From: a plasmid
Direction: 5' to 3' (one strand)
DNA: 64,000 nucleotides
Sequence record: NZ_AP019754.1
Shown here: positions 2,280 through 9,202 of the stretch, one piece after another
How the letters are laid out: each line of letters opens with the position of its first letter
Position numbering within the stretch: the stretch's first letter is position 1
Program-made: the position numbers and the translations under genes
Notes under the pieces: model-generated
The model's input: only the letters and a program-made list of their open reading frames with translations
Database searches by the model: none
Told to the model about the DNA's origin: nothing

Positions 2280-2513
2280 TTAACCGCCCTGCTGCTGTTG
2301 CCCTTGCTGTTGACTGGCCGCTTCTTTCTGTTTCTTTTTGGCCATATGATGTCCAACAGCGCAGCCTGCTGCGGCCCCAGCGACACCGTGATGTTTAACA
2401 TGCCCTGCCACGCCGCCCACGGCCGCGCCCTTTAGACAGCCTTTGGCTTCAGCTTGTGAACTCATCGCCATGAGCAGACCCGCGGTAACAAGAACAACTG
2501 ACAATTTTTTCAT
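2280..2513 (-). CDS. Small secreted glycine-zipper protein (YmgG-like).
   Basis: Signal peptide MKKLSVVLVTAGLLMAMSSQAEA, then a glycine-zipper stretch LKGAAVGGVAGHVKHHGVAGAAAGCAVG. GGAG Shine-Dalgarno upstream of the ATG at 2513. The ORF-track start at 2546 is an N-terminal extension. Confidence 0.6.
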   Translation of the reverse strand: MKKLSVVLVTAGLLMAMSSQAEAKGCLKGAAVGGVAGHVKHHGVAGAAAGCAVGHHMAKKKQKEAASQQQGQQQQGG

Positions 2514-2850
2514 CGAATGACTCCCTGATAAATAGCGAATACGCATTAATGTCTACTGAGCATAGTTAATCAGGTCGCTTCTGCTGGCCGAAGTCAGTAA
2601 ATCTTGAAACCGTTTACCCGCCGTTAAGCGTTTAACGTTCCGGGAGTGATAGCGATATCATAACAGGCGCTTTTTAGCACAATATTCAGTCCTTAACGCT
2701 TATCGATAACGACGGGAAGGAGATGTAAGAGAATATAAAAAACCGCACCTTACTCAGTAAGACGTCCAGCTTTTGAGGTGCAGTTCATTGAGGGGGTTGA
2801 GCATAATTAAAAGGCTAAACAATCAGTTCAGGATGTAAAACCGAGCAGGT

Positions 2851-4039: not shown

Positions 4040-4732
4040 TCAGGACAGCATAAAATCGACGGCATCGTTCGCATGAATGCGCGTTGTATCGAATACCGGT
4101 AGCGCGCTTTGTGCTTCTGAAACCAGCAAACCAATTTCCGTGCAGCCAAATATGACTCCTTCTGCACCTTGTGAAGCCAGTTCCTGTATCACCTCAAGAT
4201 AAAACTGGCGGGAGCCTTCCGTAAATTTCCCCATGCAGAGTTCATCAAAAATGATTTGGTTGATGACGTTACGCTGTTCTGCAGGTGGTACCAGGGTAGC
4301 AATTGAGAATTGTTTATTCAGGCGGCCCAGATAGAAGTCCTGCTCCATGGTATAACGCGTGCCCAGCAAGGCTACTCGGGTCATGCCTTTGCTCGTTATC
4401 GCCCTGCCCGTCGCATCCGCGATATGTAAAAAAGGCAAATGACAGCGAGATTCAATCGCCCCGGCAACCTTGTGCATCGTGTTGGTACATAAGACGATTG
4501 CGTCTGCACCGGCACCCGCCAGACCCACGGCCGCCTCAGCCAGTAGTTCACCAGCCCGATCCCAGTCGCCACTGCGCTGGCAGGCTTCAATTTCATGAAA
4601 ATCCACGCTGTGCAGAAGCAGCTTTGCCGAGTGTAAACCGCCTAATTTGCTTCTGATTCCCTCATTGATCAACCGATAGTAAGGAAGCGTTGATTCCCAG
4701 CTCATGCCGCCTATAAGGCCGATTGTTTTCAT
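4040..4732 (-). CDS. Aspartate/glutamate racemase-family protein (YgeA-like broad-specificity amino-acid racemase).
   Basis: [23 protein letters not shown]... and a CTNTMH motif, typical of the Asp/Glu racemase fold. Strong AAGGAG Shine-Dalgarno before the ATG at 4732. Confidence 0.8.
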
Positions 4733-4908
4733 CACTCTCCTTTGAAATACATCACTGCCAAAGCCTGTCGAGGATAATAAAACTGCGCGTTGCCTGAAAG
4801 AATTATGACGGGTTAGCCGCGTGTTTTCAGGCGTTGCGCTAACCCGTTACCGCCGAGTTCTGGCCGCCGCCGGGCAGCGGAAATCCAATGCCCGGCAGGG
4901 ATCTACCA

Positions 4909-6144
4909 TCACGTTTTATTGCCTTTTTCACTCGCCTGCTGTAATGCCGTGATGACGATGCCCGGCGTTAACACCTGAGGCAGGACAACGGGTTTTCCGC
5001 CGTCAGCAGGATAAACCACATACAGCGGCAAACCGCCACGGCCAAAATCACTGAGTGCCTGCTCAACGTCAGGATTGTACTTTGTTGAGTCAGCAATCAT
5101 ATAAATGGTGTTGGTGCGCGCCATAGCCGTCTTTACTGCCTGGGTTGACAGCGAGGTACGTTCATTAACCTGACAGGTAATGCACCAGGAGGCGGTAAAA
5201 TTCACCAGAACCGGTTTACCCTGGCCTTTTATAGCGTCCACATTTTGGGGAGACCATGCCACCGCAGCCGCTGCCACAACATCCGAAGAATCAGGGGCTG
5301 CCGTCGAGGTTTTCAGCGTAAATAACGGTGGTACCAACAGGATAATTACAACAGCTGTGGCGATGTGCAGAGCCCAGTGCCGCCTTCCCATCATCTGCCG
5401 CTTCTGAGCCAAGCCATACAGCCAGGCGGCAAAACCCAGCAGCAGGCAACAGGTCAGTATCGCTGCCAGCGCCGTCGAGCCAGCCTGCCGTTCCAGCACC
5501 CAGATTAACCAACCCGCCGCACCCAGCATCGGAAACGCCAGGCCATGTTTTAGGGTGATCATCCAGGCACCCGGCGACGGCAGTATTCGGGCAACGACAG
5601 GGAAAAAGGAAATCAAGGTGAAAGGCGCAGCAAAGCCCAACGCCAGAGAAAGAAAGATAATAAAGCTGATAACGGGGGGCTGTACAAGCGCATAACCTAT
5701 GGCGCTGGCCATAAAGGGCGCGCTACACGGGGTAGCAACAACAATCGCCAGCGCCCCCGTTAACGCGGACCCGGTCAATCCCCCCCGCTCGCCCCCGACT
5801 TCGCCGGCCCGCTGAAGTGATAATCCCACCTCGAACAGGCCAAACAGATTAAGTGCGGATGCCAGCATCACCAGAACCAGCAACGCAATCACCAGCGGTG
5901 ACTGCAGTTGAAAACCCCAGCCCACTGATGACCCACCGAATCTCGCCAGCAACAGCAGACCAACCAGTAACATCATGGTGACCACTACGCCAGCCAGAAA
6001 AGCGAGCCCTTCTGCACGAGCCTGTGCGGGCCTGGCGTGATGCCGTATCAGACTCAATGCCTTGAGCGAAATGACCGGGAACACACAGGGCATGAGATTA
6101 AGTATGATGCCGCCCAGAAAAGCGGCGGCGATAGCAGTCAACAT
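4909..6144 (-). CDS. DsbD-like thiol:disulfide reductase with only the membrane beta domain and the C-terminal thioredoxin gamma domain; no alpha domain.
   Basis: Starts directly in a transmembrane helix carrying the LMPCVFPV Cys. Second membrane Cys in VATPCSAPF. C-terminal thioredoxin fold with WCITCQ. No signal peptide or Ig-like N-terminal domain. Confidence 0.75.
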   Translation of the reverse strand: MLTAIAAAFLGGIILNLMPCVFPVISLKALSLIRHHARPAQARAEGLAFLAGVVVTMMLLVGLLLLARFGGSSVGWGFQLQSPLVIALLVLVMLASALNLFGLFEVGLSLQRAGEVGGERGGLTGSALTGALAIVVATPCSAPFMASAIGYALVQPPVISFIIFLSLALGFAAPFTLISFFPVVARILPSPGAWMITLKHGLAFPMLGAAGWLIWVLERQAGSTALAAILTCCLLLGFAAWLYGLAQKRQMMGRRHWALHIATAVVIILLVPPLFTLKTSTAAPDSSDVVAAAAVAWSPQNVDAIKGQGKPVLVNFTASWCITCQVNERTSLSTQAVKTAMARTNTIYMIADSTKYNPDVEQALSDFGRGGLPLYVVYPADGGKPVVLPQVLTPGIVITALQQASEKGNKT

Positions 6145-6167
6145 GATTTATCTGTCCAGATCGGGAA

Positions 6168-6731
6168 TTAAGCCGGGTTGGCCTGGCGGTATTTTTTCAC
6201 GGCATCCAGCGTTTTCTGAATGTGTGATTCTGGATTTTTATCCGTATAACTCAGCAGGATTTTGCCATCCGGTGCAATAACATAAGACGTACGATCGGAA
6301 AGCGTTTTACCTTTCATCTCCATCGTACTTTTGTATTCTGCAGCCACTTTTGCGCCCGGATCGGCAGCAACGGTGAATTTATCGCGGCATTCAAGTTTAG
6401 AAAATTTCTTAATCTGGTCAGTATTACCTGCGGTGACGCCGATTACCGTTGCGCCCTCTTTTTTAAAGTCATCTGTCGCTTCTGCAAAGGCATGCGCCTC
6501 TAAGGTACAGCCTGCACTAAACGCCGCCGGGAAAAAATATAGAACGACCGGGCCTTTTTGCAGTGCCTGCTGTAAAGAGAAGGTGGTTTCTTTACCTGCC
6601 AGTGCGGCTTCCAGTTTGAAATCCGGCGCCTTTGCACCCACCGGCAGTGCCGCGAACGCGGAGGTCATTGGAAGGCTCAGTGCCAGTAATGATGCAGCCG
6701 TCAGCATTTTCAGGTGATTCTTGATACGCAT
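6168..6731 (-). CDS. Periplasmic peroxiredoxin (Bcp/PrxQ-type AhpC/TSA family) with a signal peptide.
   Basis: MRIKNHLKMLTAASLLALSLPMTSAFA signal peptide. Peroxidatic Cys motif VVLYFFPAAFSAGCTLE. GGAG Shine-Dalgarno before the ATG at 6731. Sits 23 nt upstream of the DsbD-like gene. Confidence 0.75.
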   Translation of the reverse strand: MRIKNHLKMLTAASLLALSLPMTSAFAALPVGAKAPDFKLEAALAGKETTFSLQQALQKGPVVLYFFPAAFSAGCTLEAHAFAEATDDFKKEGATVIGVTAGNTDQIKKFSKLECRDKFTVAADPGAKVAAEYKSTMEMKGKTLSDRTSYVIAPDGKILLSYTDKNPESHIQKTLDAVKKYRQANPA

Positions 6732-6944
6732 TCTCTTTTCTCCGTCGACAAGCAGGCATAAGTGCCCCTTGCACGTTAATACTAGGTTCATTCACTAAAA
6801 ATGAAAAAGTTTGCGTCATGGAATAACGCGATAGCGTCACCAGAGCGTTAATGCAAACGTGTCTGGCATCTACAGTAAGATAGTCTTACAACCGATCATT
6901 TAGATATGCGGTTAGGCGATAATTTTGTGTCAGACGGTAAATAT

Positions 6945-7481
6945 TCAGGGAACAGAGAGATGCCCTACCTGATAACGCTGAAAATGGCCCGAATCTTGCG
7001 CGGGCGCCGTTGTCCAGAGACAAAAATCTATGTGGCGCCAGTGAAAGGTATCCAGAGCCGATACGCGTGCTAACGCCCCGGCTTGTTTTGGGGGCTGTGT
7101 TAACCCGGCGAGATCGGCGTAAGCAGGAACAGTGCTAACGTCCAGGGAAGCAAAACCGGCTTGAACCATCTCTGGCGACAGCCTGGCCGATAAGACCGGG
7201 TAGGTATGCACCTGCGGCCAGCCAAAATCCTCAGTAAGCTTTTTAAAACCTGCCCCAGACAAAAAACAGTGCATGCTCTCTGCGTCCTGCCAAAGATAAA
7301 AGGGCGCATACACATTTTCATCCGTGTTTGTGGGACCTTTGGCTTTGCACGCATAAAGCCAGGCTTTGAATATGAGACCAGGAAATCCCGCCATCTTATA
7401 TCCGTTGTCATCAATCCGGCGTTGAATAATCGTCATGTCGTAATCGGCGGGAAGAACAAAACGGTATTGCATAGCAAGCAT
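6945..7481 (-). CDS. DUF4865-family protein.
   Basis: MLAMQYRFVLPADYDMTIIQRRI... is the characteristic DUF4865 N-terminus. AAGGAGA Shine-Dalgarno before the ATG at 7481. The ORF-track start at 7532 is an extension. Confidence 0.6.
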   Translation of the reverse strand: MLAMQYRFVLPADYDMTIIQRRIDDNGYKMAGFPGLIFKAWLYACKAKGPTNTDENVYAPFYLWQDAESMHCFLSGAGFKKLTEDFGWPQVHTYPVLSARLSPEMVQAGFASLDVSTVPAYADLAGLTQPPKQAGALARVSALDTFHWRHIDFCLWTTAPAQDSGHFQRYQVGHLSVP

Positions 7482-7491
7482 GGTTTTCTCC

Positions 7492-7899
7492 TTAAAGTTG
7501 GGGAATATCCGCCAGGTCAAACATCTTCCCATGACTAAAAGACCAGTCTTCTGGCTGAGTGAAATGAAGAACGATCATGACATCATGAGGTTTTATACCC
7601 ATCGATTTTTCAAGACGCCGGGTGAGATCCTGATAAAAGGCCTGTTTCTGCTGCGTATTACGCGTTTTACCTGCGGTAATGGTAAACAGAAGAAAGTCAT
7701 TGCTGCGGCCCGCCTCAGCACCACAAAGATAATGCCAATCAAAAATCCGGCTGTGCGCGTCATAACAATCAAAAAACTGAAAGCAGTCTCCGCGCGGTAC
7801 GGAAAATGAAGCTTCAAGCGATTGCTGTAACGCAGCAGAAATTTTCTCTCGCCACTGCTGAAAACGCGCTGTTGAGATGGCTATATGGCTTACAGGCAT
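7492..7899 (-). CDS. Tautomerase-superfamily protein (Tautomerase_2-like, with Pro-1).
   Basis: N-terminal MP... with motifs PRGDCFQFF, RSNDFLLFTIT and DWSFSHG, matching the 4-OT/MIF-like Tautomerase_2 pattern. Confidence 0.6.
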   Translation of the reverse strand: MPVSHIAISTARFQQWREKISAALQQSLEASFSVPRGDCFQFFDCYDAHSRIFDWHYLCGAEAGRSNDFLLFTITAGKTRNTQQKQAFYQDLTRRLEKSMGIKPHDVMIVLHFTQPEDWSFSHGKMFDLADIPQL

Positions 7900-7908
7900 C
7901 GGTATCCC

Positions 7909-8223
7909 TCACTCAGGCTGTGTGTTTTTGAAGACGGTCAACGCGGAAACGGCGTTGGGCCAGCCGCAATAAAAGGCAAGATGCGTTATCACTTCGATAA
8001 TTTCATCGTCTGAAATGCCATTTTGGCGAGCAAATTCCAGATGCCAGCCCAGCTGTTCATTTCGATACAGTGCAACGAGGGCGCTGACCGTAATTAGACT
8101 TCTGTCCCGCGGTGAAAGCCCGTCCCGCTGCCAGATATCGCCAAATAAGACCTCTTCACTGAGACGTGCCAGCTTGGGTGCTATTCCGGCCATATTCTCC
8201 CGACTCACCTTTATCGTGTTCAT
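7909..8223 (-). CDS. Carboxymuconolactone decarboxylase-family (AhpD-like) protein.
   Basis: 104 aa. SPRDRSLITVSALVALYRNEQL...HLAFYCGWPNAVSA is the CMD-family signature. Confidence 0.75.
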   Translation of the reverse strand: MNTIKVSRENMAGIAPKLARLSEEVLFGDIWQRDGLSPRDRSLITVSALVALYRNEQLGWHLEFARQNGISDDEIIEVITHLAFYCGWPNAVSALTVFKNTQPE

Positions 8224-8323: not shown

Positions 8324-9202
8324 ATGGCAAAAAGACCCGTTACGTTCGATGCTGAAACATTACGAACCTTTGTCACCGGTATTGAGTTGGGAAGTTTTGC
8401 TGCTGCTGCAGAGCGCCTGGGGCGTTCAACATCGGCGGTAAGCGCTCAGCTTAAAAAGCTTGAGCAGCAGGCAGGCGCCGCGCTGGTGCAAAAGTCAGGA
8501 CGACATCTGGTCCTTACTGCCCAGGGGGAAATGATGCTTGCCTATGCGCGCAGGCTGATGAGTCTCAACGACGAAGCTTACCAGGCAGTGAAATCGGTGG
8601 GCATCCGTGGCGAGGTTCGGCTGGGATTGCAGGAAGATTTTGGAGAATCACTTCTCCCCTCTCTTCTTGGGCAATTTTCACGTGCGCACCCCGACGTTCA
8701 GGTCTCCGCGACCGTGACCCGCAACAAGCCTCTGCTGGAAGCAATACGTCACAATGAACTTGATGTTGCCCTGAGCTGGCAGGGTGACGAGAGCACCGCT
8801 TACAGCGAGTCGCTCGGGTCATTACCACTCTGCTGGATTGGCGCAAAAGATTTCGATATCGGCGCATTTATCGATCGGAACCGACCTCTGCCGTTACTGG
8901 TTTTTGAAGCACCCTGTCTGATGCGTAGCGCGGCGACAGCGGCCCTGGACAGCATGAATATCCCCTGGCGCATTGCGTTTACCAGCAGAAGCCTGAGTGG
9001 GATATGGGCGGCCGCGGCGGCCGGGCTCGGAATGACGTTGCGAACACAAACGGGCATGCCGTCATCACTCGCGATATTTGACCAGCAAAAATTGCCAGAT
9101 ACTGGCGCGATTGGCGTTCGTCTGCATCAGTCTGAAAAAAACGTATCAGCCGCAGCAGCCTCGCTTTGCCAGATGATAAAAACGCACTTTCATGGCACAT
9201 AA
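8324..9202 (+). CDS. LysR-family transcriptional regulator, divergent from the CMD-tautomerase-DUF4865 operon.
   Basis: N-terminal HTH (LRTFVTGIELGSFAAAAERLGRSTSAVSAQLKKLE) and a LysR substrate-binding domain. 292 aa. Confidence 0.85.
   Translation: MAKRPVTFDAETLRTFVTGIELGSFAAAAERLGRSTSAVSAQLKKLEQQAGAALVQKSGRHLVLTAQGEMMLAYARRLMSLNDEAYQAVKSVGIRGEVRLGLQEDFGESLLPSLLGQFSRAHPDVQVSATVTRNKPLLEAIRHNELDVALSWQGDESTAYSESLGSLPLCWIGAKDFDIGAFIDRNRPLPLLVFEAPCLMRSAATAALDSMNIPWRIAFTSRSLSGIWAAAAAGLGMTLRTQTGMPSSLAIFDQQKLPDTGAIGVRLHQSEKNVSAAAASLCQMIKTHFHGT

Follow-up and report, generated by a model that had tools for sequence, protein, structure and literature searches.

How a peroxidase outside the cytoplasm might be supplied with electrons by a membrane transporter that lacks the alpha domain is the question raised by two adjacent genes on a plasmid (sequence record NZ_AP019754.1). 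The window, i.e., the whole stretch of 64,000 nucleotides that was analysed, is 99.2% identical to NC_016817.1, the LPP-1 megaplasmid of Pantoea ananatis, and the annotation of the two genes goes no further than 'peroxiredoxin' and 'thioredoxin family protein'. The first encodes a secreted peroxiredoxin (Prx) and the second, 23 nt downstream on the minus strand, a thiol-disulfide electron transporter made up of a membrane (beta) and a thioredoxin-like (gamma) domain; this arrangement and its coordinates were confirmed from the sequence as originally predicted. The two-gene operon is probably a self-contained periplasmic peroxide-reducing system, in which electrons would pass from cytoplasmic thioredoxin to beta, on to gamma and from there directly to Prx. 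The original prediction of a dedicated module that carries cytoplasmic reducing power to a periplasmic peroxidase is supported by the strict conservation of the gene pair, the function itself being deduced from sequence comparison. The features of the pair are as follows (positions are those of the window; CP, peroxidatic cysteine; TM, transmembrane helix).

6168..6731, minus strand: Prx gene, 187 aa; predicted secreted, PprX-like atypical 2-Cys peroxiredoxin of the BCP/PrxQ type
6651..6731, minus strand: predicted Sec-type signal peptide, Prx residues 1-27, cleavage after AFA
6507..6509, minus strand: codon of the peroxidatic Cys75, in PAAFSAGC, read off the sequence
6387..6389, minus strand: codon of Cys115, the putative resolving Cys, at CP+40 in the motif ECRDKF
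6145..6167, minus strand: intergenic spacer of 23 nt, from the Prx stop codon to the ATG (6144) of the beta-gamma gene
4909..6144, minus strand: gene of the alpha-less ScsB-class thiol-disulfide electron transporter (beta-gamma), 411 aa
5308..6144, minus strand: beta domain with eight TM helices; Cys20 in TM1 (codon 6085-6087) and Cys140 in TM4 (codon 5725-5727)
4930..5262, minus strand: gamma domain, a periplasmic thioredoxin fold; W-C321-I-T-C324 (codons 5182-5184 and 5173-5175), with the clade-specific Ser353 and Leu372

The first protein matches the Pfam families AhpC-TSA (6e-27) and Redoxin (2.8e-20). A longer open reading frame (ORF) for Prx starts at 6791, an unlikely start; the one at 6731 is preferred because it follows a GGAG Shine-Dalgarno sequence and gives the length of 187 aa on which homologues and independent gene calls agree. 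The N-terminus (MRIKNHLKMLTAASLLALSLPMTSAFA, followed by A) comprises a basic n-region (R2, K4, K8), a hydrophobic core and an AxA cleavage site (AFA, followed by A); it contains neither a twin-Arg motif nor a lipobox, and an equivalent AxA site followed by A(L) is present in all Prx homologues. In the AlphaFold2 (AF2) model the predicted local distance difference test (pLDDT) is below 50 over residues 1-25, the disordered signal region. The N-terminus is predicted to be a classical Sec signal. PAAFSAGC matches the active-site pattern PxxxS/TxxC, and P68, S/T72, C75 and R147 are invariant across 127 Prx homologues. Cys115, 40 residues past the peroxidatic Cys, is likewise invariant (127/127), and the mature protein has exactly two Cys in 124 of the 127. 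The closest PDB sequences are Mycobacterium tuberculosis BcpB (5epf), S. solfataricus Bcp1 (3drn) and A. pernix BCP (2cx3). The AF2 model (pLDDT 82) has only peroxiredoxins and nothing TlpA-like among its top 50 fold matches, with 5epf as the best fold match too and template-modelling scores of 0.84-0.87 to 5epf and 3drn, the latter at 0.87. These features fit an atypical 2-Cys member of the BCP/PrxQ subfamily with a putative resolving Cys at CP+40 rather than at the +5 position of Escherichia coli BCP, so that the prediction of a secreted Bcp/PrxQ-type enzyme stands. Model confidence dips at residues 71-80 and 111-120 (block means 69 and 70-77, compared with about 90 elsewhere). The segments around Cys75 and Cys115 are those that unfold locally when PrxQ enzymes form their disulfide. 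PprX of Caulobacter crescentus was described as having a signal sequence, PrxQ subfamily membership, two Cys and a displaced resolving Cys (Cho et al. 2012, PMC3322552), and the window Prx shares these traits, with a predicted export signal, two Cys and no more, and a putative resolving Cys away from the BCP position.

The 411-aa protein matches DsbD_TM (PF02683, 8.8e-16, residues 4-214) and Thioredoxin_7 (PF13899, 3.5e-15, residues 294-380), which together with AhpC-TSA/Redoxin for Prx completes the proposed assignment of domains by hidden Markov models. The predicted motifs LMPCVFPV (Cys20), ATPCSAPF (Cys140) and WCITC (Cys321/324) were all found, and Cys20, Cys140 and the C321xxC324 pair are invariant in the transporter alignment. 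Sequence and Pfam agree with the prediction that the protein starts in the membrane domain and ends in a thioredoxin domain; it begins in TM1, with neither an alpha domain nor a signal peptide at its N-terminus, again as predicted. Hydropathy and the positive-inside rule give eight TM helices with the N-terminus outside, the basic loops cytoplasmic and the C-terminal domain periplasmic. The AF2 model (pLDDT 70.5) consists of eight long helices (2-34, kinked at Pro-Cys, 39-71, 83-100, 123-154, 157-180, 193-221, 223-248 and 254-279), a disordered linker and a thioredoxin fold; this gamma part is a beta-alpha-beta fold with pLDDT of about 80-88, and its sequence matches DsbD-gamma PDB chains. An alpha domain encoded by a separate ORF was also looked for: tblastn with the alpha domains of E. 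coli DsbD and of eight ScsBs as queries found no alpha-like sequence, adjacent or otherwise, in the 64-kb window (best E about 0.8). Only positions 171-549 of the NCBIfam DsbD model are covered (120.7 bits, cutoff 330). The top NCBIfam match is the rhodanese/DsbD-fusion selenoprotein TsoB, at 124 bits (cutoff 805) marginally above DsbD, which probably reflects an ScsB-like beta-gamma core in TsoB.

For relatives of the transporter, 1.84 billion representative proteins were searched exhaustively, and one alpha-less cluster was found at 65% identity to the window protein. Beyond this cluster the nearest relatives are about 700 aa long, share 45-52% identity (350-384 bits) and are aligned from about residue 300; they carry PF11412 at about residues 45-153, followed by about 150 residues ahead of the membrane domain. 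The N-terminus of one of them (P0242) matches the Proteus mirabilis ScsB-alpha structure 6c29 and no DsbD-alpha chain. E. coli DsbD is 26% identical to the window transporter (79 bits). A Lys eight residues past the TM1 cysteine (Lys+8) marks the ScsB-type beta and is lacking in DsbD and CcdA (Cho et al. 2012, PMC3322552); it is present in the window transporter (PCVFPVISLK) and in all 150 of its nearest representatives, whereas the residue is Ile in E. coli DsbD. The long alpha of two subdomains (PF11412 and a second Ig-like subdomain) that is typical of ScsB is absent. Given the Lys+8 marker, full-length ScsBs as nearest relatives and the low identity to E. coli DsbD, the protein is classified on its sequence as an ScsB-class protein without alpha. 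The original designation as a DsbD homologue holds for the DsbD superfamily, as judged from the TM1 and TM4 Cys (PC motifs) and the C-terminal thioredoxin-like CXXC domain, but DsbD proper was rejected on identity, the bit score relative to the model cutoff, Lys+8 and the missing alpha domain. CcdA has six TM helices and no fused periplasmic domain, and the eight helices and fused gamma of the window protein place it outside that family.

A neighbor-joining (NJ) tree was built on the beta-gamma regions with 50 bootstraps. The Prx-linked alpha-less proteins were monophyletic in 49 of the 50, nested in ScsB and sister to the full-length Caulobacterales ScsBs. Two gamma positions distinguish the clade: position 353 is Ser, where 70/70 full-length ScsBs have Trp (W353S), and position 372 is Leu, where 68/70 have Val (V372L); Leu372 directly precedes the Pro of the conserved G-x-P loop. 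Both substitutions would fit loss of the constraint imposed by contact with alpha, or a gamma retuned towards Prx. The bare alpha-less architecture has been seen previously, though not studied: 'No_alpha' DsbD/ScsB proteins were already flagged in the legend of Fig. 2 of PMC3322552.

The linkage of the two genes was followed in both directions. A genome scan with one genome per species gave 80 ScsB-class loci. At 7/7 alpha-less loci with intact flanks, a Prx of the window type lies 11-34 nt upstream on the same strand; they belong to Erwinia, Kluyvera, Rosenbergiella, Pantoea wallisii, a gammaproteobacterial and a Sphingomonadales metagenome-assembled genome, and the betaproteobacterium Duganella. 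No Prx was found within 8 kb of any of about 70 full-length ScsB loci. Across nearly all related cassettes the gap between Prx and transporter is 11-45 nt (115 nt in one). The flanking genes vary between loci and differ from those of the window; since the flanks are otherwise unrelated, the two genes move together. The cassettes compared have no third redox gene in common. For the converse, metagenome loci were collected through the window Prx. Where the Prx scored at least 237 bits and there was room downstream, the next gene was an alpha-less Lys+8 transporter in 21/21; these comprise 19 clear loci, one frameshifted (L104) and one whose start was over-extended by ORF calling (L115). At L104:1638-2868 the beta-gamma gene is split (104 + 340 aa) between intact Prx and intact sigma factor genes, and is either a pseudogene or a sequencing error.

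At a further 58 metagenome loci the Prx scored 235 bits or less and was also secreted, and there was no DsbD/ScsB gene within 5 kb. These unlinked Prx are 52-61% identical to the window Prx, and many of their genes sit between fabD/fabG/fabF and rpsF. Their closest named relatives are Caulobacteraceae peroxiredoxins (81-83% identity), and they very probably represent the PprX lineage proper, a likeness that runs through the Caulobacteraceae relatives and not through the CC1673 sequence itself. A separate clade of linked Prx was considered and rejected, the linked/unlinked split being recovered in 0/50 bootstraps.

The proposed mechanism starts in the cytoplasm. Thioredoxin would reduce the Cys20-Cys140 pair of the eight-TM beta, which would pass the electrons to the C321xxC324 pair of the periplasmic gamma; these steps follow from the established DsbD/ScsB cascade. 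Gamma would then act as a membrane-tethered periplasmic thioredoxin and reduce the Cys75-Cys115 disulfide of Prx directly. In Prx, the substrate attacked by Cys75 would be H2O2 or an organic hydroperoxide, and Cys115 would resolve the sulfenic acid so formed, giving the intramolecular disulfide. The transporter would be an ScsB-class protein after loss of its N-terminal alpha, with gamma taking over the job of alpha and TlpA in Caulobacter. Thioredoxin-fold proteins normally reduce PrxQ enzymes, as TlpA does for PprX (PMC3322552). We infer the step from gamma to Prx because the cassette has no alpha and, across the proteobacterial classes in which it is found, keeps no third redox gene, because thioredoxin-fold CXXC proteins are the normal PrxQ reductants, and because linkage is absolute within the clade, whose gamma carries the specific Ser353 and Leu372. 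The passage of electrons without an alpha domain, which the original prediction called unclear, is not very puzzling with a gamma that is itself a thioredoxin-fold CXXC domain. A bolder version has about even chances: gamma would be a terminal, substrate-specific Prx reductase that needs neither alpha nor a shuttle, W353S and V372L would mark the switch from an alpha-directed to a Prx-directed surface, and the whole would be a horizontally mobile, self-regulating cassette of four genes for defence against periplasmic peroxide.

The four genes are those of most relatives of the window pair, in which the beta-gamma gene is followed by an extracytoplasmic function (ECF) sigma factor (Sigma70_r2/r4, above the TIGR02937 cutoff) and an NrsF/DUF1109 anti-sigma factor. 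The cassette NrsF has six TM helices, belongs to PF06532 and carries two invariant Cys (18/18), which correspond to the functionally important C129/C179 of OsrA and C131/C181 of NrsF (PMC3420878, PMC3511200). The motif GNAACN-N15-17-CGAA is found at -69 to -90 of the Prx gene in 9/9 loci outside the window lineage, against a background of 0.014 per 260 nt. Both the ECF16 consensus, tGTAACc-N16-CGAA, and the Brucella -10 element, GCGAAA, agree with it (PMC3420878, PMC3511200, PMC8315932); the motif is a predicted ECF16-type promoter. Known triggers of ECF16/NrsF systems are H2O2, singlet oxygen, hypochlorite and thiol-reactive metals, and their output is repair of periplasmic oxidative damage. 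In the four-gene relatives the sigma factor and NrsF would presumably induce the operon under periplasmic oxidant stress, and gamma might reset the oxidised Cys of NrsF, closing a feedback loop. No report of a Prx/ScsB target in ECF16/NrsF regulons was found in the literature searched. The original description of a two-gene module is right for the window, but the usual form, as judged from these relatives, has four genes and the two-gene form is taken as derived.

In P. ananatis both the window lineage and a second lineage (90-91% identity) are devoid of the sigma and NrsF genes, which other Pantoea at 86% identity still carry. No trace of either gene, or of remnants, was detected by tblastn and blastn in the window or 3' of the beta-gamma gene. 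The promoter site reads GCAAACT-N17-TGAA in the window and GCACACT... in the second lineage; the strict motif is absent from both, and the predicted ECF16 promoter is regarded as decayed in the two lineages. Between them dN/dS (the ratio of nonsynonymous to synonymous substitution rates) is 0.06 for Prx and 0.046 for beta-gamma, values that show strong purifying selection on both. Among assemblies, 306 index blocks contain the identical protein, and the context of the gene pair is the same in identical assemblies. The pair is presumably expressed via another route, predicted to be perhaps read-through from the same-strand operon upstream, which consists of genes for a CMD-family protein (7909-8223), a tautomerase (7492-7899) and a DUF4865 protein (6945-7532).

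Several observations weigh against direct reduction of Prx by its operon partner or against a working operon in the window. Caulobacter PprX, the only characterised relative, is reduced via TlpA and not by ScsB directly (PMC3322552). Some secreted Prx that reach 83% identity to certain linked ones have no adjacent transporter and lie next to unrelated genes (type I restriction enzyme, CoA-transferase, Yip1), and the Prx family is not strictly dependent on a dedicated donor in cis, some members being served in trans. A scan upstream of the Prx gene, where the ECF promoter has decayed, gave no convincing sigma-70 consensus promoter, and no paper on this module was found in the literature searched.

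The main competitor, though an unlikely one, is a periplasmic thioredoxin-like intermediary (TlpA/DsbE/ScsD-like), encoded elsewhere, that would stand between gamma and Prx. It has two precedents: C. crescentus ScsB reduces PprX only through TlpA (PMC3322552), and the ECF16 regulon of Bradyrhizobium japonicum includes a DsbD-beta-core protein together with a separate membrane-anchored periplasmic thioredoxin (PMC3420878). However, it is alpha that passes the electrons on in Caulobacter, and alpha is missing from the window protein; the cassette, which moves among Alpha-, Beta- and Gammaproteobacteria, keeps no third redox gene, and its own gamma already is a thioredoxin-fold CXXC domain with clade-specific changes. 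The missing alpha likewise tells against a general periplasmic reductase, since the substrate breadth of DsbD/ScsB sits in that domain. Such a protein would serve oxidised cysteines, the enzymes of methionine-sulfoxide repair or the NrsF Cys, with Prx merely co-regulated, as might be suggested by the multi-substrate hubs that DsbD/ScsB proteins are (PMC3322552, PMC10907172) and by the two invariant Cys of the cassette NrsF, whose counterparts matter for function in OsrA and NrsF (PMC3420878, PMC3511200). It is made improbable by the absolute linkage of Prx and beta-gamma in the clade and by the purifying selection that has kept the pair in the window lineage after NrsF was lost.

Somewhat less probable still is that the P. 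ananatis pair is what remains of the four-gene cassette, no longer transcribed and heading for decay. The lost regulators, the decayed promoter and the lack of a detected sigma-70 consensus upstream would be expected of such a remnant, but both ORFs are intact, their dN/dS values are low despite dS of up to 1.24, the identical protein is widely repeated among assemblies, and read-through from the neighbouring operon is possible. The remaining alternative, that the first protein is a TlpA-like thiol-disulfide oxidoreductase and no peroxidase, was raised with the original prediction and is effectively refuted: weak NCBIfam/Pfam cross-matches to ResA and Redoxin speak for it, whereas the protein contains no CXXC, the PxxxS/TxxC motif and catalytic Arg are invariant, and its closest matches in both sequence and fold are all peroxiredoxins. 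Direct transfer from gamma to Prx is preferred to these four.

Features outside the gene pair, and two further alpha-less genes, are listed below.

6787..6813, minus strand: remnant of a predicted ECF16-type promoter, decayed; GCAAACT-N17-TGAA, compared with GNAACN-N15-17-CGAA of relatives
4736..4908, minus strand: intergenic region 3' of the beta-gamma gene, with hairpin-forming sequence only, followed by the racemase gene
L092:100-1335 and L045:64-1293, strand not stated: alpha-less ScsB-class genes outside the Prx-linked clade, upstream context missing in both

These two genes belong to P0343 (46% identity, followed by lptC/lptA) and to a Steroidobacteraceae locus at a contig edge; alpha may thus have disappeared repeatedly, but both of these loci lack upstream context. 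In the window the gene pair lies between genes for the DUF4865 protein and an Asp/Glu racemase (Pfam scan). A LysR regulator (8324-9202), divergent from the CMD-tautomerase-DUF4865 operon, would control it, and the arrangement of these four genes is restricted to P. ananatis. A weak terminator-like hairpin at 6813-6829 (minus strand; GCGTTATTCCATGACGC then AAACTTTTTC) overlaps the -35 remnant between DUF4865 and Prx and may be a chance occurrence, as 10 such sites were found where 4.6 are expected. Between the P. ananatis LPP-1 lineages dS forms a mosaic over 4040-7532 (Prx 0.20, DUF4865 0.16, beta-gamma 1.24, racemase 0.89), which suggests that a recombination breakpoint lies close to where Prx and beta-gamma adjoin (~6150). 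A small ORF at 2280-2546 (minus strand) encodes a protein whose signal peptide is followed by a mature part rich in Gly, His and Gln (…KGCLKGAAVGGVAGHVKHHGVAGAAAGCAVGHH…QQQGQQQQGG).

Experiments have shown for very few bacteria that thiol peroxidases scavenge peroxide in the periplasm. If the proposed mechanism is true, the cassette is a minimal natural version of the pathway, with one exported enzyme and one membrane protein, and a natural experiment in which a DsbD/ScsB gamma delivers electrons to its client without alpha; W353S would be a concrete handle on how the partner specificity of gamma is encoded. The cassette would also add a Prx/ScsB target to the ECF16/NrsF oxidant-response regulons, which have so far centred on methionine-sulfoxide repair. 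It is widespread in plant-associated Erwiniaceae, also occurs in other Enterobacterales, and in the pathogen P. ananatis is carried on the LPP-1 megaplasmid. Since it moves between proteobacterial classes, it may help bacteria to survive the oxidative burst of plants. The detoxification of periplasmic hydroperoxides in E. coli that a 2026 preprint describes (PMC13252058) is that by HiuH/MsrPQ, and the preprint was set aside as not relevant.

Four kinds of known system can be compared with the window pair. Most relatives of the cassette share with the ECF16/NrsF systems (C. crescentus SigF-NrsF, B. japonicum EcfF-OsrA and Brucella melitensis BcrS-AbcS) the sigma factor, the two-Cys PF06532 anti-sigma factor and a matching promoter; the known regulons, however, are centred on methionine-sulfoxide reductases (Msr), and the window has no regulators and a promoter that is decayed. 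With E. coli DsbD the transporter shares the superfamily, the Cys in TM1 and TM4, the C-terminal CXXC thioredoxin domain and presumably the cascade from thioredoxin through beta to gamma, but it is only 26% identical, alpha-less, and has Lys+8 where DsbD has Ile. The same logic is found in CcdA with extracytoplasmic thioredoxins (CcdA-ResA/StoA; Streptococcus pneumoniae CcdA-Etrx-MsrAB2, PMC3914529; B. japonicum Bll1027-Bll1026, PMC3420878), where a membrane core feeds a single thioredoxin-fold module and this a dedicated extracytoplasmic antioxidant enzyme, with no alpha involved. CcdA has six TM helices and is unfused, whereas the thioredoxin module of the window is fused to an eight-TM core of the ScsB type, and the client would be a peroxiredoxin instead of Msr or cytochrome c apoprotein. 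The closest counterpart is the route from ScsB through TlpA to PprX, by which C. crescentus was shown to reduce periplasmic peroxide (Cho et al. 2012, PMC3322552). The two have in common an ScsB-class beta (Lys+8, eight TM helices) with a gamma thioredoxin domain, in a sister-group relation, and a Prx of the same type (Sec signal, BCP/PrxQ, two Cys, resolving Cys position other than that of BCP). They differ in that the window module has neither an alpha domain nor a TlpA gene, that its gamma carries W353S and V372L, and that the genes, unlinked in Caulobacteraceae, here form one operon, in a cassette that as a rule has an ECF sigma factor and NrsF of its own to control it. The kinds of component are all known, and the functional link between ScsB and PprX is established in Caulobacter; new is the uncharacterised alpha-less, operon-fused, ECF16-regulated mobile form, together with the direct transfer from gamma to Prx that it implies.

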